Origin: Bdellovibrio sp. ZAP7
GTDB taxonomy: Bacteria; Bdellovibrionota; FAC87; UBA2466
Direction: 5' to 3'
Assembly (NCBI GenBank): GCA_945878405.1
Contig: CAMCTJ010000002.1
Span: forward strand, 3,099-67,098
DNA: 64,000 bases
The notes below the pieces were generated by a model. The model was not told where the DNA came from. It did no database searches and saw only the letters and a program-made list of their open reading frames with translations. Each line of letters starts with the position of its first letter. The first letter of the stretch is position 1. Of the stretch, positions 10,022-50,623 are shown piece by piece. The translations under genes were made by a program, and so were the position numbers.

Positions 10022-12502
10022 TTGATTATAAGATCCCAGTTATTGACTCGGCGCATTAAAAAGGGTAAAGTGCCCGCCGTGTTCCGGTTGAAATCTATTC
10101 CAATTTTAGGGGGACTGCTTTTGATCAGCAGCCTTTTGGGGTGCGGGAAACCGCTACAAAGACCCGTTCTTTCAGGGCCACCTTCGGCTCCAGTCGACCA
10201 ACTCATTTTAGGAAGAGAACTCAGTGCAAAGGACCTACGAGAACTTTTTAAAATTCTAAACCAAAAAGGTGAGTTTAATTCCCTTGCTCAGTGGATCGGG
10301 ACACTCTCTGATGCCGAATTATCCGCTTGGGGCCAGTTCTTAAACGAATGGGTGTATCAAGACGCTCTTTCTTCAAAGGGTTTGATTCAATTAGTGAAGG
10401 CCCGTGTTCAAGGACAAGGGTTTTCGCTTTGGAAGAAAAATCTTCAGAAACTGGGTCCGGCTTTACCCCAAATGTTCGAGGATGAGGAGCTTTGGTCTCT
10501 TCTTCCCAGAGTCGCCGGAACGTTGGATCCCCATTTTGTAAACGGTGTTTTGAAGCCTCTAGGGGCTGCCGCCGATAAAACCTTATTAGTGCCCGAGAAG
10601 CCGGAAGTGAACACAGGGAAAATCTGGGAGGAATTCTTTCAGCTTCTAGGAAATGAGCCAACCCGATTAAAGCTCCAAGACCTGATTCAATCTGTCGGAG
10701 ATCTCCAGTGGGTAGCTCCATTGGCGGAAGCCAGCCGTGAAAATTTAAACGCCTCAGGAGAAACTTGGTTTAGTCAGTTAGCAAAAGATTTTTCCGAGAA
10801 ACGAAGTTTCGTGAATCAGGCTTTGCGACTCGCAGAACTTCTCAATCGGCCGGCCGAACGGGCAGTGACCGTACTTCAGGAGGGGCTGCGCTCTAATCCC
10901 GACATCATTCACGCTTTGACGATGAGGTGGGATCCGATTTTTGTAAAATCGCTTTCAGAACTTGTCAGACAGGTACTCTTAAAGCCCGAAGATGGTAGCC
11001 GCTTGGACCGGGAATTTTGGCTAGCACTTCCTAGGGGAGACGTAGGTGCCCCTCCCACTCAAGAATTTATTCGACTTTACTCGGTTCTGTATTCCGGGAT
11101 TCAAAAGATTTCAGATCCCCGAAGGCTTGAGCCCCAAGTAGACAGTGGTTCTTATCGTTTGCCGCTGCAATTAAATGCGCTTTTTTTAACTCGTCTTCTT
11201 GAAGAAGCCGTTCGTCAGTTAGCACCCAAAATAAAAGAAATGAATCCAGAATCCTTTGAAGAGACTCTCTGGAAAAGCCCAGTTCTCATAAAAGAGTTTC
11301 GCTTAAACCTCATCAAAGACGAATCGCAAAATGAAGTCTCCGAATCCGTTCAACGAGATCTTCGAAGCTTGGGACTTCTGACAACGCTTTCTCGTTTGGA
11401 AAGTCTGGTTCGAGAACAGGATAGTGGAAAAAATAATTACTCAGTTACTTTTTCTTCCGAAACTCTCTCCCTCACCGAAGGGTTCTCTGAAGCAGTAGCT
11501 TCAGCACATGCGGTAAGACCCTTCGCGGACATTACTCCTTTTCTCGTAACTCTCGTGCAAAGCCTGATCGGAACCCATTCAGAAAGTGGTTTGGGCCTGG
11601 AGTTTTTAAAAAGCTCACCTAACCTACTCGCTCAAGGACAAGGTTTTCTGGCCCAGATTGATAGCAAGCAGTGGCAGCAGCTGAGAAAGCTTCTGTTTGA
11701 AGATCTGAAAATTGGTGCGCTTGAGATGGAAGATCGTGCGTTGTTGGTCAGTCTTTTTCAATCTGATCTCGAAGTGGCCGAGTGGGTGAATGAAATCTTA
11801 ATGAACGTTCAGAGCATTTATGCCTTAGATGGACTTTTCAGCTTTTATCACTCCTTTATTAGAAAACTCGGGGCACCTGAACTTTCCAATTTAGGAACCA
11901 CCTTAAGCATCTTATCTGAACTATCTCTTTTTAAAGAATCCGAAGAGGGGGTTCCAGTAAACCCAGGATTTCAATCTCTTCTTCTCAATGGGAATAGACT
12001 TTCTAAAGGAGTGAGAGGCTTCGCAGGCCTTTCAGCGGTTCAGGCAAGGCTTCTTCAGGGGAAATTAAACGAAGTACTTGGGGAGGATCTTGAGGGTCAA
12101 AAAGGTTCCGATTTGATTTTTGGAGTTCTTGCGAGGCTAACTGAGAGAGTAAGCCCGGAGACTGTTTCTGGATTTACCCAAAGACTTTTCGAAACCGAAT
12201 GGAGAATCACAGATTCAGAAAGTCAGTGGATCAGCGATTTTTCAAAGAAAAAAGGATTTTCTGAGCTCCACGAGCTTCTTAAAAGCCGAAAAAATCAGGT
12301 TTCCGTCTTGGATTTAATGAATGAAGTAAGAGTTTTATCTGAAAAGAAAGTCGTCGACGAGGGAATGCGTCTTTTGGCCAAAATTCAAAATGAACGAATG
12401 AAAGAAATCGCTTTAGTCATTTTGGAAATGGATCGCTCAGGTGAATTGTTTTCGCTTCTCGATTCTGTACCACTTATTTTTAAAAAAGGAGAAACCCCAT
12501 GA
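10022..12502 (+). CDS. large hypothetical lipoprotein (about 800 aa, apparently helical)
   Basis: Long uninterrupted ORF with the signal/lipobox LLLISSLLGCG. The TTG start at 10022 is uncertain; an in-frame GTG just before FRLKSIPILGG is also possible. No motif recognised. Confidence 0.6.
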   Translation: MIIRSQLLTRRIKKGKVPAVFRLKSIPILGGLLLISSLLGCGKPLQRPVLSGPPSAPVDQLILGRELSAKDLRELFKILNQKGEFNSLAQWIGTLSDAELSAWGQFLNEWVYQDALSSKGLIQLVKARVQGQGFSLWKKNLQKLGPALPQMFEDEELWSLLPRVAGTLDPHFVNGVLKPLGAAADKTLLVPEKPEVNTGKIWEEFFQLLGNEPTRLKLQDLIQSVGDLQWVAPLAEASRENLNASGETWFSQLAKDFSEKRSFVNQALRLAELLNRPAERAVTVLQEGLRSNPDIIHALTMRWDPIFVKSLSELVRQVLLKPEDGSRLDREFWLALPRGDVGAPPTQEFIRLYSVLYSGIQKISDPRRLEPQVDSGSYRLPLQLNALFLTRLLEEAVRQLAPKIKEMNPESFEETLWKSPVLIKEFRLNLIKDESQNEVSESVQRDLRSLGLLTTLSRLESLVREQDSGKNNYSVTFSSETLSLTEGFSEAVASAHAVRPFADITPFLVTLVQSLIGTHSESGLGLEFLKSSPNLLAQGQGFLAQIDSKQWQQLRKLLFEDLKIGALEMEDRALLVSLFQSDLEVAEWVNEILMNVQSIYALDGLFSFYHSFIRKLGAPELSNLGTTLSILSELSLFKESEEGVPVNPGFQSLLLNGNRLSKGVRGFAGLSAVQARLLQGKLNEVLGEDLEGQKGSDLIFGVLARLTERVSPETVSGFTQRLFETEWRITDSESQWISDFSKKKGFSELHELLKSRKNQVSVLDLMNEVRVLSEKKVVDEGMRLLAKIQNERMKEIALVILEMDRSGELFSLLDSVPLIFKKGETP

Positions 12503-40056: not shown

Positions 40057-40953
40057 TTAAAGATGAATCCTTTTCACAAAGCTTACGAGACCGGGCAAAG
40101 CCTGCTGAATCTTTCGTTTAAGAAGCCCCAATTTAATCAACTTGGGGGCTCTATAACTCTCGATAATTTTGGGGTGAAGACAGTTCATGAATTCTATGTT
40201 CTGCAAAGGAAAAACCTGTTTTTTTAGCAGGGCTTGATACGATTCGCTGCCTTTGCGAACATAGAGGAAGACATTTTGCTGATAATAGTAGGGCACTTCA
40301 GGATCTCCCCAGATTTGCGATCGAAAAATATCGAAGGGAACGTATCCATCTGCCACAAACATTTTGGCCCAATAGGAATGAGGCTGCTCATTAATATGGC
40401 CAACCCCACCCTGACCCGTGTATGCCGCACTAAACAAAACGACGTCTGCCAACTTGATGAGCGATTGAACCAGGATCCGCGCTGAAGCTGGTTTAAGATG
40501 CTCCCCTAGTTCAGTAGATATTGCCAGATCAAAACGCCGATTAAAAAAAAGGGGAAAGTTTAAATCTGTTTGGTGAAATCTAATGGAGCTATCCAACATC
40601 TGTTTTTGTGACAGCCACTGTCCATCAAACCCAACGAGATCACGAGCCCCAGCCTCTCTAAAGGCCTTCAGCCAAGCTCCTCTTCCGCAGCCTAGATCTA
40701 CAACACTCTTGGGCTTAAAAATATGCCTAAGTAAGCGGACGTATTTTGTTGCACCAGCATAGGATCTTGCCGTCTGACGGTCGAAATAATGCTGATCATA
40801 AACCGATGCTATTCCCTCAGGGAGTGTAATCCTAGCGTCCACGTATCCAACAAAAAATAAAGTCCCAAAAGCTAGGAAGGGGGGTAGCAACAGCCAAAAG
40901 CTAAGCTTGCAAATGTTTGACCGAGGCATCACCTTGAGAATTAGACTTCGCAT
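40057..40953 (-). CDS. membrane-anchored class I SAM-dependent methyltransferase
   Basis: N-terminal TM helix (LSFWLLLPPFLAFGTLFFVGYV). SAM motif I VVDLGCGRGAWL. Post-I acidic residue LVGFD. The ATG at 40953 is preferred; the ORF track begins at a TTG at 40968. Confidence 0.75.
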   Translation of the reverse strand: MRSLILKVMPRSNICKLSFWLLLPPFLAFGTLFFVGYVDARITLPEGIASVYDQHYFDRQTARSYAGATKYVRLLRHIFKPKSVVDLGCGRGAWLKAFREAGARDLVGFDGQWLSQKQMLDSSIRFHQTDLNFPLFFNRRFDLAISTELGEHLKPASARILVQSLIKLADVVLFSAAYTGQGGVGHINEQPHSYWAKMFVADGYVPFDIFRSQIWGDPEVPYYYQQNVFLYVRKGSESYQALLKKQVFPLQNIEFMNCLHPKIIESYRAPKLIKLGLLKRKIQQALPGLVSFVKRIHL

Positions 40954-41073
40954 AGGCTTGCCCGGCAAGCCTCAGGGCGTTGGCGCGCTCCGCCAAATGT
41001 CGGAGAATGAAGGGCGAGTGTTAAATTCTTGTACCCTGTTTACCTTTTGGTTCTGATTGGAGAGCGGGGATTT

Positions 41074-41102
41074 TTCTTGCTGCAGATATCTTGTAGTATA
41101 AT
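41074..41102 (+). promoter_or_regulatory. candidate sigma-70 promoter for the ABC exporter gene
   Basis: TTCTTG, a 17-nt spacer, then TATAAT. The -10 element ends about 30 nt upstream of the ATG at 41133. Confidence 0.4.
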
Positions 41103-41132
41103 TCCCAGACAGATTGTCTTAATTGTTAACCG

Positions 41133-42920
41133 ATGAGAAAAAACCCATCATCCAATATTTCAGTTGTTCTTAGTATTGTTCGAAAATTTAAAAAAGAATG
41201 TTTCTTCTTGATTTTATTTGTCACCGTTGATGTTGCTCTTGAAACCCTCAGTGTGGGTTCGGTGATTCCCATGTTGACAATCACGTTAAACAATTCAGTG
41301 GTCAGAGACAACCCAAAGAAATGGCTTTCATTCATCAGTTCCCATTTAAGTGAGTCACAACAAATAATTGTGATAAGTCTAGGGATACTCATTCTTTTTC
41401 TCATCCGAACTGCAAACAATTTAGCAACCAAATTCTATTCGTCATGGTTCACTAACCATCTCCGTGAATATTGGAGCACACAAATGTTTCAGAACCTTTC
41501 AGTTAATAATTCGGCACTCTTAAAAAACACTAAAAAAGGAGTCTTGAATAATTCTATTAATCAAGAGCCACTTTTTGCAGCTAAAGGAGTGAGCCTCCTA
41601 ATAGACGTCATCGTTTCTCTGCTTTTAATGATTTCGTTGACAGTCTTACTCTTATTAATCAATTGGAAGGCTACTCTTACCTGTGTGGGACTTTTACTTT
41701 TGTTTGTTGGTTTTGTCTGGAACACTATGATGCGTTTTTCGTGCGAGTTTGGAAAAAACAGAGTCAAATTAAATGAGGAAATCAATCAGTTGTTGTGCGA
41801 TTCTTCAGATGGCTGGCGCCAAATAAAAGTGTTGTCACTCGAGAGGGAGTTGTTTTCTGAGTTTCGGTTCAAGCTACGAAAACTGGTAACTGGGCTTGTA
41901 AAGTTCGAACTGATTAACAGTATTCCGAAGGAAGTAGGCGAGCTTTCGATTGTTTTCTCACTGGTTACCGGATTGTTTTTTGCCAAGTTTTATCGACATG
42001 TCGAGCTGTCACTTTTTTTACCTCAGATTGTATTTTTTTCTGTTTCGTTCATGAAACTGTTTTCGGCAGCGACCTCAGTTCTAAAAAAGGGGATGGAGAT
42101 GGCTACCTGTCTGCCGTCTATCCTTAAAGTTCATTCTCTTTCAGGGGCTTCAATTTCCGGTGAGGTTTTGTCCTCGAATCCCCCAACTATCTTTCAGAGA
42201 AACCTCGCGGTCAAAAACCTAAGTTTTCATGTTGCTAAAAATCATTTGGTTCTAAATGATTTATCATTTCAAATACAGAAAGGTGAATTCATTGCGCTCA
42301 TTGGGAAGGTGGGGGTTGGCAAATCAACTTTGTGCGACCTGTTAGCAGGTTTATATGAACCTTCTTCAGGAGCAATATTTCTGGACGGGGTTTCGCTTAA
42401 ACAGCTGGATTTAGTTCAATGGAAAAAAAAGATCTCCTATGTAACACAAGAAGTCTTTCTCTTTAATGACACCATCATAAACAATATTCTTTTGGGCAAT
42501 AAGTCCGCTCGCAGAGAAGACGCAATTAAGGCGGCTGAAATTGCACAGGCCAAAGAATTGGTTGAGGCCTTACCCCAGAGTTTCGATACTGTTCTGGGAC
42601 CTGGAGGAATCACTCTTTCGGGGGGGCAGAAACAAAAAATAGCTTTAGCTCAAGCTCTCGTTAGAGAGCCAGACTTTCTAATACTAGATGAGGCCACAAA
42701 TGCTTTAGATTATGAGTCCGAGGAAAAACTTTTCACTTCGTTGCGTAACAACAACAGAAAACAGACCATACTTTTGGTAACACACAGAACTCACGTTTTA
42801 AAGCATGTTGACAGGACATTACAGCTGCAAACGAGCTCAATGAGAGAATATCATTCCTCCATGGAGTATGACTGTTTTCAAAGGCCAGAACTTCAATGTT
42901 TACCCACCCCTAGAAAATGA
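41133..42920 (+). CDS. fused TMD-NBD ABC exporter (MsbA/type I exporter-like)
   Basis: About 6 N-terminal TM helices. Walker A GKVGVGKST, signature LSGGQKQK, Walker B FLILDEAT, H-loop VTHR. Confidence 0.9.
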   Translation: MRKNPSSNISVVLSIVRKFKKECFFLILFVTVDVALETLSVGSVIPMLTITLNNSVVRDNPKKWLSFISSHLSESQQIIVISLGILILFLIRTANNLATKFYSSWFTNHLREYWSTQMFQNLSVNNSALLKNTKKGVLNNSINQEPLFAAKGVSLLIDVIVSLLLMISLTVLLLLINWKATLTCVGLLLLFVGFVWNTMMRFSCEFGKNRVKLNEEINQLLCDSSDGWRQIKVLSLERELFSEFRFKLRKLVTGLVKFELINSIPKEVGELSIVFSLVTGLFFAKFYRHVELSLFLPQIVFFSVSFMKLFSAATSVLKKGMEMATCLPSILKVHSLSGASISGEVLSSNPPTIFQRNLAVKNLSFHVAKNHLVLNDLSFQIQKGEFIALIGKVGVGKSTLCDLLAGLYEPSSGAIFLDGVSLKQLDLVQWKKKISYVTQEVFLFNDTIINNILLGNKSARREDAIKAAEIAQAKELVEALPQSFDTVLGPGGITLSGGQKQKIALAQALVREPDFLILDEATNALDYESEEKLFTSLRNNNRKQTILLVTHRTHVLKHVDRTLQLQTSSMREYHSSMEYDCFQRPELQCLPTPRK

Positions 42921-44678
42921 GGGAAGAAAAACACATTCATTGTAATTTTCATTTGGCTCATCGGTAATATACTGAACTCGCTTACCTGATTTTATTGCCA
43001 TCCAGGCCAACGGGTAATCATACTGATTTCGTCGTGATTTTATATATACAATTTTACATTCTCCTATCAGCCTCTTTAAGTTTTCAAAATCAAACTTTAT
43101 AAGTGACCTTCTTAGATAGTAGGCTTTAAATCTCTTCGGCTCATCCGTAGGAATCGTAAGATCGCTCTGAAACAGACGTTGTCCCGTGACACTACCTTGG
43201 ATGTAAAAGGTCATCGCTAGACTTGTAAATACAACGGCACATCCGATTCGCTTTACCAAGGTTCTTTGAAATAAAATGAGACTTTGACTTATGGTGGCTC
43301 CCCATACAATCGAGGTTGCTACAAACCAGGGTGTTTGCAATCGAGAGGTCCATGTTTGGTTTTTGACAATTGCGTGAAATAAAAGCCAGGAGCTCAGGAG
43401 TGAAAGCCCGATAATGTACAGGCGTTTGTCGCGCAATCTAACTATTAAAGGTCCTAAAAAAATAATCGTGACAAAAAGCTGCAAGGGATTTCCTACATAG
43501 TCTTCAGTTGATCTTATAGAAAAGACTAAATCCAATCTTGTCAGAATATTCAAATCTACTTCAAAGATTTTCCCAACAAAAGAGACAACGGGTAAACTGA
43601 CCGCTGCTGGGAGATGGTCGACAATGTGTCGAATTGAGTTAAACAATTGTTCCATGGGACTACTAAGCCGTAGGGTCACTAGGTTTTCTGCATTAATATG
43701 ACCGTATTTAAGCCACTTGTGTGTGATTTCAGAAATCGTAGCCAAAACGCCAAAGAAAACACTCCCTAGAGAAGAAATAAACGAGCGAAAATCCCGAACT
43801 ATCGTTAAAAAGTAAGCTGGGGCTATGGCTAATAGGAAAGGCGTGCAAATCAGAATTGACGTGGGCTTAATTAAATAGCCAGTACCCATGGCGATGGGAA
43901 CGGCACAAACTAGATAACGAGTGCAGTTTGCCCTGTAAGGAAAAATATTTCTTAAAAAGTGGTCCACCACAGCTACCACAATCACTACCGTAGGAACTGA
44001 GGCTACAAGATCATTTTGAGTTGTTTGAGCTTGTAAGACCACCATAGGGGCCGCCAAGAAAACCGAAATGATCGCAAGGCTGTTTAATCTAGAAACTCCC
44101 CAATTTATGAACCATCCCCACAACCCAAACCCGATGATTAAAAATGCATTCAGCTGAATGGAGTTTGCCCATCGATCGGACTCCCAAAAGAGTTGCTCGA
44201 TTAAAATGAGGTACTCAGCTCCGGGAGTCATTTGATTTTGTCGTTGATCATTCGTGACGTATGGAAAGACGGACCGATTTTGAAACCAATTTGCTACCCT
44301 CGACATGTGGTAGGCCATACTGTCCCAATTACTGGGCGGGAAACACAGAGCATTAAAAGCTACGACCGACATGACTATGCCTAATAAGGCTATGATTTTT
44401 TTTTCAATAGATGAGCAAGCGGGCGAGTTTTGCCAGGGATTAGTAAACGCAATGGAGTGACCATTGCGGATGTAAATTGCACCCCACAAAATCAGGCATA
44501 ACACCAGGACTCGAATAATCAAAGGAGTCACTAGATCAAATGAACTGAAAAAGGCCAGCAAAACAGAAAAGAAACTCGTAACAACACAAAAAGCTAATGG
44601 CAAACTTTTCAGGAAGGTTATCCTCAGCCATTTATCGATAGGCAAGCTTGCAACAAAAATGAGAGTTAATATAATCAA
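42900..44678 (-). CDS. large polytopic membrane protein, GT-C-like (ArnT/PMT_2-like) putative glycosyltransferase
   Basis: 592 aa with at least 11 hydrophobic helices. An acidic/aromatic loop after the first helices (PPSNWDSMAYHMSRVANW) is reminiscent of GT-C enzymes. The apparent start is TTG. Confidence 0.5.
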   Translation of the reverse strand: MIILTLIFVASLPIDKWLRITFLKSLPLAFCVVTSFFSVLLAFFSSFDLVTPLIIRVLVLCLILWGAIYIRNGHSIAFTNPWQNSPACSSIEKKIIALLGIVMSVVAFNALCFPPSNWDSMAYHMSRVANWFQNRSVFPYVTNDQRQNQMTPGAEYLILIEQLFWESDRWANSIQLNAFLIIGFGLWGWFINWGVSRLNSLAIISVFLAAPMVVLQAQTTQNDLVASVPTVVIVVAVVDHFLRNIFPYRANCTRYLVCAVPIAMGTGYLIKPTSILICTPFLLAIAPAYFLTIVRDFRSFISSLGSVFFGVLATISEITHKWLKYGHINAENLVTLRLSSPMEQLFNSIRHIVDHLPAAVSLPVVSFVGKIFEVDLNILTRLDLVFSIRSTEDYVGNPLQLFVTIIFLGPLIVRLRDKRLYIIGLSLLSSWLLFHAIVKNQTWTSRLQTPWFVATSIVWGATISQSLILFQRTLVKRIGCAVVFTSLAMTFYIQGSVTGQRLFQSDLTIPTDEPKRFKAYYLRRSLIKFDFENLKRLIGECKIVYIKSRRNQYDYPLAWMAIKSGKRVQYITDEPNENYNECVFLPSFSRGG

Positions 44679-44723
44679 GCTGTCACTTTCATCAATGGAG
44701 CTAGATTACCGGTAAAAAAGAGA

Positions 44724-46007
44724 ATGCTAAATAGTAAACCTGAAGAGAACCCATTTTCTGTGCCCGTGCCTTTACGAGTAGGCGTTTTCTACGTTTGTCG
44801 TCTGGAGCCCATGAAGACTCTGGCCCAGATGATGTATCGTTTCGCAGCTCGCGCTATAGGAAACTCACTGACTAGGTTCTCCAGCACTAGAGCGGTTTAT
44901 TTGATGGGGGGCTCAGCTCATCGGATTATCCCCGCATTGTCCGACCTCGACTTCCTGCTATTTACTGAAATTAATCCCGATGTAATTTTAAAGCTTCGGC
45001 GTGTGTTTTTATTACATAAAAAACGGTATTGGATTCCAGGAGAAATCATTCCCTTAGATGAAAAAGCTCTCAAATTTTTGGAGACATCGGGCTGCTCTCT
45101 TTCAATTCATATTTTTGGCAGAACTAAAAAGATTGCAGGCGATACGATTAATATTACCCCTACAATTCCTCCAGATCCCGCAAGTCTTTTTATGCTTTTG
45201 ATACGTTTTTTTGTGAAAGCGACAAGTTCACTTAGTGGTGGTCTGAGAAATGCTTCTTTGTATAATATTTTTGACTGCCAAAGACATTTATCAAAGATAA
45301 TCGCATTAAACTCAGGAACAAAAGTAACAAGCTATCTTTCCGAAAAAGACCCCACATCATTAGTTCAGCTGTTTTGTGAAGCCTATTTGTTGTTAGACAA
45401 ACGCGCAAAAAATCTTATTAGGGAAATATTTCCCAACGGCGTTCCGTTTGAGATTGCCTCGTATTTGGGTGACCCCACAAACATGCCAGAGCAGCGAATA
45501 TTCAGAGTTGAATCCACAAAAGATGTCATCTCCGATTTGTTTCAGCAAACCTTGAACACGCAAGCCCGCACAACTTCTTTCCCACTTTGCCTTTCAGAAA
45601 GCACGGCAATCTGTCGATTAATTGGCCTAACACTAGAATCGTGGTCACAGGTTTTGAGTCGCCTTTCCTCTTTACCCGCAGAGATTACAATTCCTATTCT
45701 AACTGTTGTTGCTCGGGAACGAGCCATGAGACGTTATTTTCAACTCCCGGGTGATATTATGCTGAACTCTCAAGAAGCTATTAGAAGTAAACTGAACCAG
45801 TTTTGCAGATTGGGATGCTATCTCGCTACCCAGGGATATTTTTTAGAAAGAGAGTCGCTTGCCGAATGTGCGGAACCGATTTTGCCCAACACCACAAGAA
45901 CTCTGAGAAGGACCCATCAAGGCTCGTCACAGCTATCAATCCAAGACATGGTGGAAAATACTATTCTGGTTCGAAATGAACTAGAGAAATTTATTTTTAA
46001 TCTTTAA
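44724..46007 (+). CDS. Pol-beta-superfamily nucleotidyltransferase-fold protein with a long C-terminal helical region
   Basis: YLMGGSAHRIIPALSDLDFLLF fits the minimal NTase signature hG[GS]-x(9-13)-Dh[DE]h. The remaining 330 aa or so are unassigned. Confidence 0.55.
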   Translation: MLNSKPEENPFSVPVPLRVGVFYVCRLEPMKTLAQMMYRFAARAIGNSLTRFSSTRAVYLMGGSAHRIIPALSDLDFLLFTEINPDVILKLRRVFLLHKKRYWIPGEIIPLDEKALKFLETSGCSLSIHIFGRTKKIAGDTINITPTIPPDPASLFMLLIRFFVKATSSLSGGLRNASLYNIFDCQRHLSKIIALNSGTKVTSYLSEKDPTSLVQLFCEAYLLLDKRAKNLIREIFPNGVPFEIASYLGDPTNMPEQRIFRVESTKDVISDLFQQTLNTQARTTSFPLCLSESTAICRLIGLTLESWSQVLSRLSSLPAEITIPILTVVARERAMRRYFQLPGDIMLNSQEAIRSKLNQFCRLGCYLATQGYFLERESLAECAEPILPNTTRTLRRTHQGSSQLSIQDMVENTILVRNELEKFIFNL

Positions 46008-46012
46008 AAGCG

Positions 46013-46717
46013 CTACATTTTAAGTTCCGATTTTATTTTTCGAATTCTCTCAACGATACTAAGCCCAGTCGATCTTAAACACTGCCTTATAAACGGCCCA
46101 GAATAATTAAACCGCTGCCATTGATCACCATCGTAAACCCTTAGCCAAGTGTGTACATCTTCTCCACTCTCTAAAAGTTTTTTTATGATGTTCTGCAGAA
46201 TTCGCTGATCCCCCGGAGCTCCTAACTCGCCTGCTGACCAGTCTGTCCAAAGAGCTAGTTTCTCTTTATTCCAAATTTGTTCAAAATCATCTTTCCAAGT
46301 CGTTAATACGGTCTTTGCTTTGGGGTGCTTTAGATTTATAAAAAAAGCCCCATTATTAAAGTCATATATTCTTCCGTCGAGTTTTCCCCTACAAAAAATA
46401 AAAGCTTTATCCATGTTCTCAAAAATAATCTCTTCAAGGCGAGGTCTGAAATTGTAAATATAACAATCCACATCTAGATAGAGTGCCCAATCGTGAGTTT
46501 CACTCAGAACCTCATCTAGCAGAAGATAGATACGATTGAAGGCTGCGTGCCGAGGCGTAAACCCTCGTTTTATTCCAATGAATGAATGGTAGTCATATTT
46601 GTGTTGCAAACAATACTTTCGAATCCCAGGGCCGGTCACTTCAAGGAGGGGGAGATACAATACGGGATCACAACTCTGAATCACTGCAATTGAAAGTGGA
46701 GAATTTACTGGGTTCAT
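46013..46717 (-). CDS. GT-A-like nucleotide-diphospho-sugar transferase (GT34/DUF273-like)
   Basis: IRKYCLQHKYDYHSF ... THDWALYLDVDCYIYN contains a DxD motif in the context typical of Mnn10/Gma12-like and related transferases. There is no signal peptide. Confidence 0.5.
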   Translation of the reverse strand: MNPVNSPLSIAVIQSCDPVLYLPLLEVTGPGIRKYCLQHKYDYHSFIGIKRGFTPRHAAFNRIYLLLDEVLSETHDWALYLDVDCYIYNFRPRLEEIIFENMDKAFIFCRGKLDGRIYDFNNGAFFINLKHPKAKTVLTTWKDDFEQIWNKEKLALWTDWSAGELGAPGDQRILQNIIKKLLESGEDVHTWLRVYDGDQWQRFNYSGPFIRQCLRSTGLSIVERIRKIKSELKM

Positions 46718-46775
46718 TTTTACTGGTGCTACTTAAGCAGTTGCACAACAGATCTTACTTAATTAATGTAGGAAA

Positions 46776-47498
46776 ATGCTAACCGCGATCGTCTTAAATT
46801 GGAAGCGGCCCGAGAATCTGCCACGCATTATCGCTGCTCTGCAGCGATGCGAGATCGTAAATGAAATTATAGTTTGGAATAACAACCCAGGGATTAATCT
46901 TAAACTGAATAGGGGTGTCTGTGTTATCAACTCGAACCGAGATTTGGGACTATTCACAAGATTTGCAGCCGCTTTGTTAGCAAAAAACGATGGAATTTTT
47001 TTTCAAGATGATGATGTTGTTCTCGACGAGAACAGGATAATGCAGCTTCACAAGCAATGGGAAATTGCTCCTGAAGTTTGTCACGCAGCCTTCGGCCGAA
47101 GATGTGCTGTCGGTCCTTATAACAAAATAAATGCATGGGGAGATGTGGATGTTGTTCTCACTAAGGCAGTGGTTGTTCATAAAAAAGTGTGTCTGCAAGC
47201 GGCTCTCAACACCCAGTATTTTAAAGATCTCCCTGGAAGACCCCTTGGAAACGGAGAGGACATTCTGTTGTCTTATACTGCAATGTCCATGAGCGGAAAA
47301 TATAACCGCGCGCACAATTTATTTTTAAAAGAAGAAAGACAAGACCCAAACATTGCTATAAGTCAACGAGAGCCAACTCATATGGAACATCGGGATCGAG
47401 TTCTAAAGCGGTGTCAAAAATTATTTAGTTCTCCCAGGTTGCCTTACTCAGATGCTTTTAATTTAGACCAAATCCCAGTCAGCCAACCGAGTCCGTAA
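46776..47498 (+). CDS. GT-A glycosyltransferase, GT2/GT64-like
   Basis: LTAIVLNWKRPENLPRIIAALQRCEIVNEIIVWNNNP ... IFFQDDDVVL. The (I/V)VWNN plus DDD arrangement resembles the exostosin-type GT64 domain. Confidence 0.6.
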   Translation: MLTAIVLNWKRPENLPRIIAALQRCEIVNEIIVWNNNPGINLKLNRGVCVINSNRDLGLFTRFAAALLAKNDGIFFQDDDVVLDENRIMQLHKQWEIAPEVCHAAFGRRCAVGPYNKINAWGDVDVVLTKAVVVHKKVCLQAALNTQYFKDLPGRPLGNGEDILLSYTAMSMSGKYNRAHNLFLKEERQDPNIAISQREPTHMEHRDRVLKRCQKLFSSPRLPYSDAFNLDQIPVSQPSP

Positions 47499-48430
47499 GC
47501 AAAATGTACCATCGCTGTTAAAGGAACTGCGGAGATTATTCCGACAGCACCTAATTGCCGAATGGGTCTTGAGCAAAATGCCGCTATTAGGGACATAAAT
47601 AGGTAACTCACCACCAAAAAGAAAATCGCTTGATACTTACCCCCAATAAACAGGGCCACTAAACAAATCAGCGCTACTGGAGGCGCCAGATAGAGGGGAT
47701 GACAACTTTGCCAAGACCTCCAGGTTTGCTGAAACCGACCGAAACCGTAGGAAAAAGTCTGTTTGGCAAAGCTATGAATATTTCTTCTTCGGTGATGAAA
47801 AACATAAAGTTCGGAACATAAAATCGCCTTAAGTTTTAATCGGCCTATAAAATACAAGAAAAAAGTTTCCTGATTGCTTGATAGCTCATCCAAAAAATAT
47901 AGCTCGCTAGGGACCATGTCTCGGCGGCATGCGAGATTACAAAAAATGATATTATGTTGAGTGGCTATCTGGAGCTTTCTCTTAGGCAAGCAATATCTTT
48001 GTCTAACCATCGGAGCCGCAAAACAGCTAGTCATTACAGCCCCAAAACACTTCTCGATTAGAGCGCTGTTCGGAGGGGTCAGATTAGCACCACCGGCTAC
48101 AATAACATCGGGCTGCTCATCAAATAAGGCGAGTGTGGAATGAAAAAGATGTTGAGGAACAATGACGTCATCATCTAGAAAGTGAATTATTTTCCCGTGG
48201 CACAAATCAAAGGCCGTATTTCTTGCTTTAGACAGAGAAACGCGAGCAATTTGCACCCATCTAAACTGAGGATGCATAAAGCCTTTCAAAAAATGAACAA
48301 TGCTAGGATGATCGCCATTGATAACGATGAGAACCTCCGAGTTTGGAGGCAACGCATGAGATACGCTTTCGCAACACGCCTTTAAAAGTTCCAACCTTCC
48401 ACAGCTTACAATATGAACTGAAAGATTCAT
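47444..48430 (-). CDS. family 2 glycosyltransferase with a C-terminal multi-TM tail
   Basis: VHIVSCGRLELLKACCESV...EVLIVINGD and HFLDDDVIV (DxD). The last 110 aa or so are hydrophobic. ATGA overlap with the upstream kinase-like gene. Confidence 0.8.
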   Translation of the reverse strand: MNLSVHIVSCGRLELLKACCESVSHALPPNSEVLIVINGDHPSIVHFLKGFMHPQFRWVQIARVSLSKARNTAFDLCHGKIIHFLDDDVIVPQHLFHSTLALFDEQPDVIVAGGANLTPPNSALIEKCFGAVMTSCFAAPMVRQRYCLPKRKLQIATQHNIIFCNLACRRDMVPSELYFLDELSSNQETFFLYFIGRLKLKAILCSELYVFHHRRRNIHSFAKQTFSYGFGRFQQTWRSWQSCHPLYLAPPVALICLVALFIGGKYQAIFFLVVSYLFMSLIAAFCSRPIRQLGAVGIISAVPLTAMVHFAYGLGWLTGIWSKLKASE

Positions 48431-49443
48431 TTCATTTCACTCACACAATTTTTAATCTGAAAAAATGTTTCAAACACGTTAGCACTTTCGGATGGATTAT
48501 GGGAAAAAGTGAAGTGGGCCACTTTAACTTCTGAAAAAACTCGAAATGCAGTTCCCGTCCGGCTGACTAATATTTTCAACTTAGCGAGGATATCATGCAA
48601 AGAGGCCCGGATAAAAAACTCCCAGATTTGGGGAGTTTCGTAGCCGACAACTAGCCATTTAAACAGGGGCCATAGAATATAGATTCGGTTAATCTGTACA
48701 ATTTGGGCCTTCTTTTTCCGCTTTTTGCTGCTCAGAATTAACCATTTAATCTCGCCATCGGCAGCAATAGAGTCGCTAAAAAAATCAGCGCCAACGACGA
48801 ATTTACTGCCAAAATGAAATCGTTTAAACTGTCGACAGTATTTACTGTTTATATTAGGCCGTTCTTTTAAGGCAATACGCTGAGGAAAAGCCAGCATTTT
48901 CCCCTCTTTTGTGATCACTGGGGTGTCATCAGAGATAATTTTGGTGCTTTGATTCTTAAGCAATTCCATCGCGAGTGTACTTTTTCCTCCTCCAGAGGGT
49001 GCCACCAAAACACCTCCCACATTGTGAGTAATGAAGCCAAACCCATGAATCCGATGGCAACCTCGCTTATCCATAGACTCACCTAGGTATGAGAGCGTTG
49101 CTAAATAAACAACTTCGTATGACACATCCGGATCTGAGCTATAAATATGGCAATATCTGGCAACAAAATCATACTCCACTTGAGCAGTTCCAAACATGCA
49201 AACTCGAATACAATTTCCAAAGGACCAAGCGCGCTTTGAACGAAATTGGTTACTCGCAACCAAAGGCGTCCAAGGACAAGGTTCCTTGGAAAAATGTCGA
49301 ATGACAAACTGATCCTTTTCCAAAAAGGCTGTTTCAGGATTTAAAAAATAAGCAAAATCATGTTGAAAATTTGAGGACACTTCATGCATGTCTGTTTCTA
49401 AAAGGAGTCGAGTTCCATGAACCCAGAGTTCATGCGTAAACAT
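48427..49443 (-). CDS. HPr kinase/phosphorylase C-terminal-domain-like P-loop protein
   Basis: IHGFGFITHNVGGVLVAPSGGGKSTLAMELLKNQSTKIISDDTPVI matches the HprK-C pattern HG..v...G.GvLi.G.SG.GKS..a..L...G..L.sDD. GTGAGGG lies 5 nt upstream of the ATG. Confidence 0.7.
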   Translation of the reverse strand: MFTHELWVHGTRLLLETDMHEVSSNFQHDFAYFLNPETAFLEKDQFVIRHFSKEPCPWTPLVASNQFRSKRAWSFGNCIRVCMFGTAQVEYDFVARYCHIYSSDPDVSYEVVYLATLSYLGESMDKRGCHRIHGFGFITHNVGGVLVAPSGGGKSTLAMELLKNQSTKIISDDTPVITKEGKMLAFPQRIALKERPNINSKYCRQFKRFHFGSKFVVGADFFSDSIAADGEIKWLILSSKKRKKKAQIVQINRIYILWPLFKWLVVGYETPQIWEFFIRASLHDILAKLKILVSRTGTAFRVFSEVKVAHFTFSHNPSESANVFETFFQIKNCVSEMK

Positions 49444-49768
49444 TTTACCCTCACCATTTCTGGAAAATTACGAAGCTATTGCCGAAAGAAGGCAAAAATT
49501 AAAGCTCAATTTAATGTCTCGTAAATAAGATAGCGGTTCAAGGGAAATAATCCCGCAGTAGCCCTCACGAGGGCCCTTTAACGCATCGTTTATTAGCTGT
49601 AACTTTTATTACTATGATCGCAGGATAAATTCCCATTCATAAATTTCATTGCCGCGACATAATACCTGGGAAAAGTGCCGACCTTGGCTTTGGAAATTCA
49701 GGCGGTACCTTTTGGTAAACAATATGCAGTAAGAAATCATGTGGCTTGCCGAGCAAAAAGAGACACTC

Positions 49769-50623
49769 ATGATTCTAAAACTACTTTTTGTCTTGAGTTT
49801 GGGATTTTTTGGTAGAGATGCACAGGCCGGGTTGGGACCCGTTCGCAGGATACTTCCTGATTTTGTTAATGGAGTTACTTTAGACTCTACTGCCGCTCTT
49901 GCAGATTCTCTAGATTCCATTGCAAGTTTAAAGGCCCCAATTGTGACTCGAATTGTCTTTGATGAATGGGTACCCGCTAGTTTCTATGTGGATCCCGTGA
50001 GTAGTCTCTATGAGAAAAGCTTCGTTATGGGAGAAATACTCGATTCCTCCGCGGTAAAGCAGTACACGGTTAAGCAATATAAGGCCCGAACAGTGGAATA
50101 CATCAAAGCTCTCGGGGCCAACGTCGATCTCTGGGAGGTGGGAAATGAGATTAACGGGGAATGGCTTGGGAAAACTTCAGTCGTCGTATCAAAAATGACC
50201 AGTGCTTTTGACGCAGTAAAAAATGCAGGATTAAAAACGGCACTGACCCTCTATTACAACCCCGGCTGCTGGGCGAAACCCGACCATGAAATGTTTTTGT
50301 GGGCCCAGCAAAACATTCCGGATCGGATGAAGCAGGGGTTAGATTACGTTTGGGTCAGTTATTACGAAGATGATTGCAATGGAACCCAACCGGATTGGTT
50401 TAAAGTGATGAGTCGAGTGGCAACCCTATTTCCCAATTCTAAAGTTGGGATTGGAGAGTGTGGAACTACCGACCCACTCAAGAAAGAGGCTTTTGTAAAA
50501 AAGTATTATACTCTTCGTCCGGCAGTGCCTCGTTTTGTAGGTGGTTTCTTCTGGTGGTACTTTAAAACTGATATGGTCCCTAAAACTCAGCCACTGTGGG
50601 CCGTTTTGAGTGATACCATCTAA
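49769..50623 (+). CDS. secreted clan GH-A (TIM-barrel) glycoside hydrolase-like protein
   Basis: Signal peptide MILKLLFVLSLGFFGRDAQA. WEVGNEINGEW is an NE acid/base motif. A later VGIGECG is a candidate nucleophile Glu. The ORF-track start at 49739 is less likely. Confidence 0.6.
   Translation: MILKLLFVLSLGFFGRDAQAGLGPVRRILPDFVNGVTLDSTAALADSLDSIASLKAPIVTRIVFDEWVPASFYVDPVSSLYEKSFVMGEILDSSAVKQYTVKQYKARTVEYIKALGANVDLWEVGNEINGEWLGKTSVVVSKMTSAFDAVKNAGLKTALTLYYNPGCWAKPDHEMFLWAQQNIPDRMKQGLDYVWVSYYEDDCNGTQPDWFKVMSRVATLFPNSKVGIGECGTTDPLKKEAFVKKYYTLRPAVPRFVGGFFWWYFKTDMVPKTQPLWAVLSDTI

Follow-up and report, generated by a model that had tools for sequence, protein, structure and literature searches.

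HprK-superfamily kinases are known as regulators of the PTS and of carbon catabolite control; a part in the tailoring of RiPPs has been recognized more recently. HPr kinase/phosphorylase (HprK/P) acts on a protein Ser, and its His, Lys, and Asp constellation serves to phosphorylate a hydroxyl, with the gamma-phosphate coming from ATP (or with PPi as donor). HprK and phosphoenolpyruvate carboxykinase (PEPCK) belong to the same PEPCK-like P-loop fold class. The BY-kinases (Wzc, CapB) are P-loop protein kinases of polysaccharide loci that work with membrane export machinery; they are of the MinD/Mrp-like P-loop lineage, autophosphorylate on Tyr, and belong to a Wzy/Wza context. As an earlier note on the DNA analyzed here had correctly stated, stand-alone HprK-like kinases act on peptide Ser residues in RiPP pathways, and in the case of pseudomycoidin the HPr-kinase homolog PsmK and the nucleotidyltransferase PsmN give rise to a phospho-glycosyl modification of a lasso peptide (PMC8498205). 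WbdD (E. coli O9a/K. pneumoniae O3) and ORF6-O7 are glycan-terminating kinase-methyltransferases, their kinases being of two unrelated folds, from ABC-transporter-dependent O-antigen pathways, in which a cytoplasmic kinase gene lies beside wzm-wzt and glycosyltransferase genes (PMC3482155, PMC11231755).

Here we describe HprKL, a predicted P-loop phosphotransferase encoded in a 64,000-nucleotide stretch of Bdellovibrio sp. ZAP7 DNA (the window). HprKL belongs to a family of ~650 clusters at 50% identity from MAGs of Bdellovibrionota, Binataceae, Elusimicrobiota, Aminicenantes, Acidobacteriota, and Omnitrophota, every member found being named “hypothetical protein” at present. Its members are dedicated to loci in which glycan assembly is linked to an ABC transporter. 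Because its neighbors are glycan transferases and exporters instead of sugar-uptake genes, HprKL probably phosphorylates a surface sugar chain or controls its production. In the leading reading, which is plausible and to which we assign a probability of roughly 0.4, HprKL would be a cytoplasmic kinase whose presumed acceptor is a lipid-linked glycan intermediate, phosphorylated before ABC export.

The HprKL gene and the surrounding island

HprKL lies in a low-GC island (GC 0.415 versus 0.445 in the flanks) with the following features.

40057..40968, minus strand: SAM-dependent methyltransferase with an N-terminal TM segment (window at residue 19)
41133..42920, plus strand: fused TMD-NBD ABC exporter, MsbA/PglK/HepA-like
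42900..44678, minus strand: TM592, an orphan polytopic membrane protein of 592 aa with about 10 to 13 TM segments
44724..46007, plus strand: NT427, a soluble protein of 427 aa with a pol-beta-type nucleotidyltransferase motif, YLMGGSAHRIIPALSDLDF, at residues 59 to 77
46013..46717, minus strand: soluble protein of 234 aa
46776..47498, plus strand: second GT-A glycosyltransferase, GT64-like
47444..48430, minus strand: GT2m, a membrane GT2 with an N-terminal GT-A domain and three C-terminal TM segments (~residues 242 to 310)
48427..48430, minus strand: ATGA stop/start overlap of the HprKL and GT2m genes, read in the sequence
48427..49443, minus strand: HprKL, 338 aa, soluble, predicted HprK/PEPCK-superfamily phosphotransferase, first gene of the operon
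48919..49056, minus strand: catalytic core of HprKL, residues 130 to 175, with H130-R-x-H133-G, Walker A, and S171-D172-D173-T-P

The HprKL gene starts with ATG downstream of the Shine-Dalgarno-like motif GGTGAGG, and a sequence scan detected no TM-like window in its product. Where it ends, the minus strand reads ...GAA ATG AAA TGA, and the ATG AAT CTT... of GT2m begins within this stretch. The ATGA overlap with a membrane GT2 gene, reported in the earlier note, is therefore real, and it may entail the 1:1 co-expression that was proposed there for the two genes.

GT2m matched Pfam Glycos_transf_2 (1.2e-13) and, weakly, the NCBIfam models HpsN, EpsD, and MftF, with TM-like windows at residues 242, 264, and 290. 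The GT64-like gene (Pfam Glyco_transf_64, 8.3e-10) is convergent with GT2m, whose 3′ end it overlaps by 55 nt, and has a 64% identical ortholog in an equivalent position in a related locus, L001. The 234-aa protein, also with a 64% identical ortholog in L001, had a weak DUF273 match only (E = 0.085); judging from its DxD-like motif LDVDCY, it is possibly a third GT-A enzyme. The fused exporter (Pfam ABC_tran, 1e-33; ABC_membrane, 3.4e-9) matched the NCBIfam models HepA_fam_ABC (4.7e-75), MsbA (5.5e-74), and PglK (1.3e-63), all under the equivalog cut-offs, and a 41% identical ortholog adjoins HprKL in L001. The methyltransferase (Pfam Methyltransf_23, 4.7e-11) forms the left edge of the island.

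NT427 had no match in Pfam, NCBIfam, or single-sequence PDB searches. Its assignment as a nucleotidyltransferase (NTase) follows from an 11-sequence profile that retrieved the minimal NTase 1ylq (E = 0.0033) over GS..SDxD, together with the invariance of S73, D74, and D76. Relatives were found in L001, L007, L009, L010, L026, L028, L030, L032, and L035, the last homolog search returning only five. The AlphaFold2 model of NT427 was poor (pLDDT 62.6), and Foldseek with this model gave nothing significant, the NTases MntA and LinB appearing only at E ~0.46.

TM592 had no match in Pfam, NCBIfam, or PDB, nor by phmmer to the large membrane proteins of other HprKL loci. It stands where these loci have GT-C-like (PMT_2-like) membrane proteins of 480 to 600 aa, two of which match PMT_2 weakly (L010, E = 7e-3; L034, E = 1.4e-3); TM592 is a candidate GT-C by position only.

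Likeness to HprK and PEPCK

The earlier note had taken the segment IHGFGF...SDDTPVI (HprKL residues 132 to 177) for the nucleotide-binding core of HprK. As in HprK/P, an HG strand is followed by two strands, a Walker A motif GxxGxGKS, a helix, and a strand ending in DD; Walker A, the catalytic His, and Asp-Asp are thus all present in HprK order. The Walker A sequence is APSGGGKS (residues 148 to 155, nucleotides 48979 to 49002), with Lys154 as the P-loop Lys. In an alignment of 125 diverse family representatives H133 and K154 are invariant, and H130, G153, S171, D173, and P175 are kept in at least 90%.

Compared with curated models, HprKL alone scored below threshold for Pfam Hpr_kinase_C (PF07475; E = 3.1e-3, 17.5 bits versus a cut-off of 33.3), HprK_rel_B (TIGR04355; E = 5e-5, 22.6 bits versus 200), HprK_rel_A (TIGR04352; 17.3 bits versus 200), TIGR00679 (16.3 bits versus 240), and the NCBIfam PEPCK model NF006821 (13.8 bits versus 369). 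The picture changed with its relatives: among the 40 aligned, 38 matched HprK_rel_A (best, 1e-7), 34 HprK_rel_B (best, 6e-7), 24 hpr-ser, and 22 Hpr_kinase_C (best E = 7e-7, still subthreshold), and a few family members matched ScmC. In the HprK_rel_B alignment the P-loop takes a similar place, HprKL residues 124 to 185 corresponding to profile positions 139 to 199 of 351.

A single-sequence PDB search with HprKL gave only noise (RPL28, guanylate kinase, HprK at E ~1), and a family profile was therefore needed. This profile reached the HprK/P structures 1jb1, 1knx, and 1ko7 at E ~0.02 with HG..GxxGxGKS..DD aligned. The HG, GKS, and DD motifs of the L. casei enzyme (1jb1), where the residues are numbered His140, Lys161, and Asp178/179 in publications, align with His133, Lys154, and Asp172/173 of HprKL. 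In hhalign, a 125-sequence HprKL profile matched B. subtilis HprK (sequence entered by hand) with a probability of 86% and E = 5e-6 over 61 columns, in a motif register identical to that with 1jb1. The sequence similarity to HprK spans ~60 residues only. The profile alignments stop at the DD motif, beyond which HprKL has a conserved FPQRIAL (P187, R189) where HprK carries its LEIRGLGI-type signature, the two being matched by place only.

The AlphaFold2 model of HprKL was of high confidence (pLDDT 93.8, pTM 0.92), including the N- and C-terminal regions. Foldseek found 125 PDB matches at E ≤ 1e-3, of which the best 50 were all PEPCK (E, 3e-9 to 9e-8; probability, 1.00; TMq, 0.50 to 0.58, a likeness at fold level), with 2qzy, 1oen, and 2pc9 as examples of the closest structures. 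HprKL is, however, much shorter than PEPCK (338 versus 510 to 620 aa), shares 10 to 14% identity with it, and lies outside any gluconeogenic context. No sequence or fold match to BY-kinases was seen in the Pfam and Foldseek searches.

The likeness of HprKL to HprK is beyond chance, but only at the level of the family or the fold. At this level the reading of the P-loop segment as an HprK core was borne out by the HMM matches of the relatives, the family profile, hhalign, and Foldseek, all four placing the core in the HprK/PEPCK superfamily and not in an unrelated ABC or AAA P-loop family. On the predicted model, HprKL is a member of the PEPCK-like P-loop fold class that comprises PEPCK and HprK. 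It is assigned to no curated family: it falls short of the HPr kinase/phosphorylase thresholds (PF07475, TIGR00679) and fails PEPCK on family score and on size (>500 aa, both domains).

The earlier note also stated that an hprK N-terminal domain is absent, which holds. Instead of the MurE/F-like N-terminal domain of HprK/P, HprKL has a family-specific domain of ~125 aa, and its C-terminal region is helical. That note found nothing recognizable in these terminal regions; on the alignments and the AlphaFold2 model they turn out to be conserved and well folded, and to belong to the PEPCK/HprK-like protein proper, with family-wide motifs DFxYF (29 to 33), LSxxGExLD (117 to 125), GYETPQIWE (267 to 275), and R295.

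Beyond these regions, four HprKL relatives carry the precomputed annotation PF27840, and one, P0195, is a fusion with a B12-binding radical SAM domain, a single case. Other candidate fusions were discarded: the extra 340 aa of P0192 look like a miscalled high-GC ORF, and the extensions of P0153 and P0224 belong to no family. A literature search for HprK-like kinases in glycan, O-antigen, or glycosyltransferase contexts returned nothing relevant.

Gene neighborhoods across the HprKL family

The window offers no PTS partner, in agreement with the earlier note: tblastn with HPr and EI (sequences entered by hand) found nothing in it below E = 0.12, and no PTS family was present among the flanking genes scanned. 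HprKL differs from HprK/P in this respect, with no HPr, Crh, or EI nearby and a glycan assembly context. Neither the window nor the annotated HprKL loci contain RiPP machinery (lasso cyclase, B1/B2, PqqD/RRE, or leader peptidase), and no ATP-grasp/GAK-system genes were found in the annotated loci. No small ORF is conserved near HprKL across 58 loci; clusters of small ORFs considered as precursor peptides were shadow ORFs within closely related contigs.

The pairing with a GT2 gene is conserved, a full-length GT2m ortholog with the same C-terminal TM domain being present in 23 of 32 nonredundant loci of the first set. GT2m is nevertheless one of two main partners. Its ortholog lies directly downstream of HprKL in 14 of 58 loci, whereas in 17 the same place is taken by a Wzm-like ABC-2 permease, with its ATPase next in line, and in 6 by c12 (an unknown protein of ~500 aa) followed by ABC-2. 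Among the ~49 loci whose sequence reaches far enough downstream, about 12 lack all three. Both main partners can be tightly coupled to HprKL, by a 4-nt overlap or direct abutment with GT2m (L001, L004, L008, L014, L016, L035, L038, and L042) or by a 4-nt overlap with the permease (L006, L021, L027, L028, L030, and L053). Since ABC-2 permease and c12-ABC-2 genes also follow HprKL directly, its association is with a whole locus for assembling and exporting a glycan rather than with the GT2 by itself.

Other genes recurrently found near HprKL encode GT4s, GT-C-like membrane proteins, methyltransferases, and a nucleotidyltransferase-like protein; in Pfam searches ABC2_membrane, GT4, and GT2 were confirmed and PMT_2-like GT-C matches were weak. 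L006, which in addition has a Bac_transf phosphoglycosyl transferase, a UDP-glucose dehydrogenase, and an epimerase, is accordingly a classical polysaccharide locus. In L004 the neighbors of HprKL include a HAD phosphatase and FkbH, an enzyme that handles phosphoglycerate. Amino_oxidase genes were observed in L004 and L032. These genes and the radical SAM fusion prompted the idea that GT2m might be a carotenoid or hopanoid glycosyltransferase, which was rejected, no CrtQ or HpnI being among its NCBIfam matches. Unrelated methyltransferases recur in L007, L009, and L010, and methyltransferase and NTase-like partners are overall common but not universal. NT427-like or c12 proteins occur in ~16 loci; with an hhalign probability of only 53% between c12 and NT427, the link between them is tentative.

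The island and some other HprKL loci resemble those of WbdD and ORF6-O7 in also having a methyltransferase gene. The kinase fold of HprKL is unrelated, however, and it has no fused methyltransferase. Its modeled secondary structure lacks the coiled-coil extension of WbdD, and the linked Wzt-like ATPases are only 218 to 272 aa long and therefore without a cap-reading CBM. The resemblance to WbdD would be a functional analogy only.

Possible roles of HprKL

In the leading reading, HprKL would phosphorylate, at the inner membrane face, a sugar hydroxyl of a lipid-linked glycosyl or glycan intermediate that GT2m makes and neighboring GT-A and GT4 enzymes extend, before the product is taken across the membrane by the ABC exporter. 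It may be that the phosphate stays as a decoration or cap or, where NT427/c12 or a methyltransferase is present, becomes part of a phosphodiester. By analogy with the precedents, such a role is suggested by the fold, the conserved His, Lys, and Asp, a soluble protein beside membrane partners, the glycan loci, and the absence of a PTS or peptide substrate. Against it count the lack of the known terminator hallmarks in the HprKL family, that is, a coiled-coil ruler and a CBM on the linked Wzt (PMC11231755), the non-universal methyltransferase and NTase partners, the loci without the usual downstream genes, and the short stretch of HprK similarity. A more specific version is tentative and somewhat unlikely: the family would be a third, independently evolved class of glycan kinases, derived from the HprK/PEPCK fold in ABC-transporter-dependent pathways, that with NT427/c12 or a methyltransferase installs a phosphate or phosphodiester-linked group on the lipid-linked glycan at the cytoplasmic face.

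As far as is known, the characterized hydroxyl-phosphorylating kinases of the HprK superfamily all act on protein or peptide Ser, not on sugars (PMC8498205), which also speaks against a glycan acceptor and for the main rival, a regulatory kinase/phosphorylase. It would phosphorylate, and perhaps phosphorolyze, a Ser of GT2m, of the ABC-2 transporter, or of some other protein in the pathway, so that glycan synthesis or export would follow ATP/Pi/PPi or metabolite levels, in a role comparable to that of the P-loop BY-kinases in Wzy-dependent capsule pathways. The retained catalytic residues fit this role, the tight stop/start overlap hints that GT2m, or the permease, is a physical partner, and a partner alternating between two membrane proteins suits a docking regulator better than an enzyme of a single glycan chemistry. 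We nevertheless hold it to be rather unlikely: the 58 loci have no conserved small protein substrate, the N-terminal domain is a different fold from the regulatory domain of HprK, and the recurrent NTase-like and methyltransferase partners are better suited to a chemical modification pathway.

The exclusively PEPCK hits at the top of the Foldseek search would also agree with a small-molecule kinase that holds a precursor (sugar, polyol, or hydroxy-acid) between its N-terminal and P-loop domains, where a pocket for a small ligand could be built from conserved acidic and aromatic motifs (DFxYF, E110, and E122/D125). After activation of the product by the NTase-like protein, it would be placed on the glycan by a transferase, as in LicA/LicC/LicD logic. 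The NT427-like and c12 proteins, and FkbH and the HAD phosphatase in L004, are in line with this. We consider such a precursor kinase improbable, as many complete loci lack an NTase-like partner, the NCBIfam PEPCK match is negligible, and precursor-supply genes are not usually translationally coupled to an ABC-2 permease.

A noncatalytic role, in which HprKL is an NTPase or scaffold that assembles or energizes the GT2/transporter complex without phosphotransfer, would account for the tight coupling to membrane partners and for a sequence alignment to known kinases limited to the nucleotide-binding part. It is very unlikely: His133 and Asp173, which lie outside the P-loop, are invariant or nearly so in ~125 diverged representatives, and a pure NTPase is hard to square with the conservation of residues used for phosphotransfer in HprK/P.

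Least probable, and largely refuted by the gene context, is a PadeK-, ThcoK-, PsmK-, or HprK-related A/B-type RiPP kinase whose peptide would be glycosylated and ABC exported: HprKL is stand-alone and outside the PTS like these enzymes, its best NCBIfam matches are HprK_rel_A and HprK_rel_B (and, for a few members, ScmC), one relative is fused to a radical SAM domain, and the pseudomycoidin and paeninodin clusters (PMC8498205) likewise combine a kinase with an NTase-like protein and an ABC exporter, but it scores 17 to 23 bits against HprK_rel cut-offs of 200, lacks a conserved small ORF, precursor peptide, or RiPP maturation genes nearby, and lies in loci that, like those of polysaccharide pathways, are rich in genes for GT2, GT4, GT-C, and Wzm/Wzt.

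The family provides an annotation handle for proteins now named “hypothetical protein,” and its HprKL-GT2m or HprKL-Wzm-Wzt module is conserved and small enough for heterologous expression. To our knowledge, the envelopes of Bdellovibrionota, Binatia, Elusimicrobiota, Aminicenantes, Omnitrophota, and others are essentially unstudied. If HprKL instead acts as a regulator, glycan export of the ABC-transporter-dependent kind would gain its first described Ser-kinase/phosphorylase switch. If its acceptor is a glycan, it would represent a new enzyme class phosphorylating cell-surface polysaccharides; and if the family is indeed a third class of glycan kinases, the kinase-plus-NTase “phosphoglycosylation” logic, which we know so far only from a lasso peptide, would extend to surface glycans in several uncultured phyla. 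With a family of ~650 clusters tied to loci where glycans are assembled and exported, the HprK superfamily would gain a third functional niche.

HprKL and the glycan island

The 338-aa ORF proposed in the earlier note as an HprK-like kinase gene (HprKL; 48427..49443, minus strand) is present in the window sequence, and the peptide quoted there corresponds to residues 132 to 177. GGTGAGG lies upstream of the ATG start, a choice of start codon supported by relatives that align from residue 1. The 4-nt stop/start overlap with GT2m, the membrane GT2 gene (47444..48430), was likewise found at 48427-48430, where the minus strand reads GAA ATG AAA TGA and GT2m begins at the ATG of ATGA within the end of HprKL. 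In GT2m, a GT-A domain (Pfam Glycos_transf_2, 1.2e-13) precedes three hydrophobic segments (about residues 242 to 310); HprKL itself has no TM-like segment.

HprKL is the rightmost gene of a low-GC island (40057-49443; GC 0.415 versus 0.445 to 0.447 in the flanks) of about eight to nine genes, in this order:

First in the island: TM-anchored SAM methyltransferase
41133..42920 (+): ABC595, fused MsbA/PglK/HepA-like ABC exporter
42900-44678 (-): TM592, polytopic orphan membrane protein, 592 aa
44724-46007 (+): NT427, nucleotidyltransferase-motif protein, 427 aa
After NT427: 234-aa protein, possible GT-A
Before GT2m (+): GT64-like GT-A enzyme
47444..48430 (-): GT2m, membrane GT2 (Pfam Glycos_transf_2)
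48427..49443 (-): HprKL, kinase-like gene, last in the island

The left flank carries IscS/MnmA/MiaB-like, YceI, Lnb_N, and DUF3015 genes, and the right flank an RNase T-like exonuclease gene and upp. The lower GC content of the island and its housekeeping flanks suggest that the island was acquired horizontally or is a variable locus for surface glycans. As the earlier note had it, the PTS context is missing, no HPr or EI homologue being detectable in the 64-kb window.

Two gene pairs in the island overlap tail to tail, ABC595 and TM592 by 21 nt (42900-42920) and the GT64-like gene (+) and GT2m (-) by 55 nt (window 47444-47498); the latter arrangement has a matching 50-nt overlap (11996-12045) in L001, a locus at 50% identity. 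For TM592 (~10 to 13 TM segments), searches of Pfam, NCBIfam, PDB, and the other loci revealed no relatives; it occupies the position taken in those loci by weakly PMT_2-like (GT-C) membrane proteins. Divergent from HprKL, across a 295-nt spacer, is a gene for a 294-aa secreted protein (49739-50623, +) with a hydrophobic, signal-like N-terminal segment and a weak, below-cut-off GH53-like match (E=1.2e-4); the other loci lack a conserved counterpart.

An HprK/PEPCK-type fold in a widespread family

HprKL is soluble, has an HprK/PEPCK fold, and carries the complete set of HprK phosphotransfer residues. As a single sequence it exceeded the curated threshold of none of the family models, with matches confined to residues 124 to 195: Hpr_kinase_C (E=3.1e-3, 17.5 bits; cut-off, 33.3), HprK_rel_B (22.6 bits; cut-off, 200), HprK_rel_A (17.3 bits), hpr-ser (16.3 bits), and a PEPCK model (13.8 bits). 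The similarity to HprK is convincing once relatives are included. Among the 40 aligned of the 43 homologues found, 22 matched Hpr_kinase_C (best, 7e-7), 38 HprK_rel_A, 34 HprK_rel_B, and 24 hpr-ser. The profile of this alignment retrieved the HprK/P structures 1jb1, 1knx, and 1ko7 from PDB at an E value of about 0.02, aligning His133 with the HG motif of L. casei HprK/P (1jb1), Lys154/Ser155 with GKS, and Asp172/Asp173 with DD; the published numbers of these L. casei residues are His140, Lys161/Ser162, and Asp178/Asp179. A 125-sequence profile aligned with B. subtilis HprK over 61 columns (86% probability, E=5e-6).

The PEP-carboxykinase-like P-loop fold is common to HprK and PEPCK. An AlphaFold2 model of HprKL built on the 40-sequence alignment (pLDDT 93.8, pTM 0.92) gave 125 Foldseek hits against PDB at E<=1e-3, the best 50 of which were PEP carboxykinases only, with E values from 3e-9 to 9e-8, a probability of 1.00, and TMq from 0.50 to 0.58, in a superposition that may or may not take in the N-terminal domain. 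Together, the HprK-profile and PEPCK-fold matches establish the HprK-C/PEPCK-like similarity on which the earlier note's proposal depended.

The family is large. Among 1.84 billion representatives, 656 clusters (50% identity) matched the HprKL profile at E<=1e-30, a number rising to 991 at E<=1e-10, and nearly all of the matches listed were 320 to 360 aa long and matched end to end; a word-indexed profile search returned at least 360 family proteins. Wherever a database name is given it is "hypothetical protein," and the hosts are MAGs of Bdellovibrionota, Binataceae, Elusimicrobiota/Endomicrobiaceae, Aminicenantes, Terracidiphilus, Omnitrophota, and Planctomycetia. Pfam PF27840.1 appears in the precomputed domain tables of four relatives (P0006, P0023, P0028, and P0034), so that part of the family may already have been delineated by curators. 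In one relative from the representative library (P0195, 880 aa), a B12-binding radical SAM region (residues about 90 to 400) precedes a full HprK-like domain (546 to 874), a natural-looking fusion seen in this one case only.

Over 125 diverged representatives, H133 and K154 are invariant, and core residues H130, G153, S171, D173, P175, P187, R189, R208, and K214 are at least 90% conserved. The N- and C-terminal parts, which the earlier note could not relate to anything, are instead well-folded, conserved family regions, the former with D29-F30-x-x-F33, E110, S118, G121, and D125 and the latter with G267, E275, and R295. The possibility that HprKL is an NTPase without kinase activity draws on the sequence alignment being limited to the nucleotide-binding part; retention of the non-P-loop His and Asp across the family argues for true phosphotransfer rather than nucleotide binding alone, and we consider this reading improbable.

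HprKL differs from HprK/P in its subthreshold score and its lack of both an N-terminal regulatory domain and HPr; from HprK_rel_A and HprK_rel_B in scoring ~20 bits where 200 are required and in the absence of their cassette partners; and from lasso-peptide kinases in having loci without RiPP genes. Its likeness to PEPCK is at the fold level only. HprKL appears to work like an HprK-type P-loop phosphotransferase lying outside all of these families.

Gene neighborhoods across phyla

HprKL is the first gene of operons in which either a membrane GT2 or a Wzm/Wzt exporter follows, within glycan-assembly loci of many phyla. We examined 58 loci that each carry a family member, drawn from contigs encoding known relatives, GTDB genomes, and JGI metagenomes, with our own ORF calls, clustering, and HMMs. 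The genes directly downstream were as follows:

14 loci: GT2 ortholog, mostly overlapping or abutting
17 loci: ABC-2 (Wzm-like) permease, then a 218- to 272-aa ATPase, often with a 4-nt overlap
6 loci: c12 (an uncharacterized protein of ~500 to 510 aa), then an ABC-2 permease
About 12 of ~49 loci with sufficient downstream sequence: none of the three

A full-length ortholog of GT2m, aligned over about residues 2 to 320 with the C-terminal TM region included, occurred in 23 of the 32 nonredundant loci of a first set, and HMMs detected one in 28 of the 32 loci longer than ~15 kb. Also recurrent were GT4 and GtrB/DPM1-type GT2 enzymes, methyltransferases, and 480- to 600-aa membrane proteins with weak PMT_2 (GT-C) matches; a Bac_transf phosphoglycosyl transferase, UDP-glucose dehydrogenase, and epimerase were confined to L006. 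The HprKL loci showed no PqqD/RRE, lasso, ATP-grasp, or PTS genes, and no small ORF was conserved near HprKL in the 58. In L004 (7948-13508), HprKL and the GT2 gene are flanked by genes for an FkbH_N protein, an 88-aa ORF product (possible carrier protein), an HAD hydrolase, and an EamA transporter; Amino_oxidase-family genes adjoin HprKL in L004 and L032 (6540-7952).

NT427 has relatives in at least nine other loci (L001, L007, L009, L010, L026, L028, L030, L032, and L035). Its profile matched the minimal nucleotidyltransferase 1ylq (E=0.0033) on the GS..SDxD motif, with S73, D74, and D76 invariant, pointing to an unannotated family with a putative N-terminal pol-beta-type nucleotidyltransferase motif that recurs with HprKL; its AlphaFold2 model was too poor for fold classification. 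In six loci of high GC content (L005 10996-12531, L015, L020, L022, L023, and L048 4093-5706), the gene for c12, a soluble protein without a Pfam hit, separates HprKL from the ABC-2 permease gene. The c12 motif, CFGSSD(L/F)DL, resembles that of NT427, the hhalign link between the two reaching 53% probability only.

Proposed role

In the reading we prefer, with a probability of roughly 0.4, HprKL would meet the lipid-linked glycosyltransferase product at the cytoplasmic face and phosphorylate a sugar hydroxyl of the glycan before export; a methyltransferase or nucleotidyltransferase-like partner, where present, could elaborate the phosphate. WbdD first phosphorylates, then methylates, the O9a terminus (PMC3482155). 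In K. pneumoniae O7, a kinase of different fold gives the same cap (PMC11231755), so that glycan kinases arose more than once in ABC-transporter-dependent pathways. Unlike WbdD-type terminators, HprKL lacks a coiled-coil ruler, and its linked Wzt-like ATPases are too short for a cap-reading CBM (PMC11231755); the phosphate is therefore more probably a decoration or an intermediate than a cap that gates export in the classical way. The HPr-kinase homologue of the pseudomycoidin pathway phosphorylates a Ser, and a nucleotidyltransferase puts hexoses on the phosphate (PMC8498205).

The strongest alternative, though an unlikely one, is that HprKL regulates the GT2 or the transporter as a Ser kinase/phosphorylase: known HprK-type enzymes act on Ser, and the HprKL partner switches between two membrane proteins. 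Less probable still is a PEPCK-like small-molecule kinase supplying the nucleotidyltransferase-like enzyme, to which the best fold match and the presence of such a partner in about 16 loci would point. A RiPP kinase is very improbable, being strongly opposed by the genomic context.

We found no paper on an HprK-like kinase in glycan pathways. The chemistry of HprKL is likely to be ordinary phosphotransfer; overall, the finding is genuine, can be reproduced across phyla, and lends itself to direct testing, and it puts a fold and chemistry that are already known into a functional context that is new and strongly conserved.
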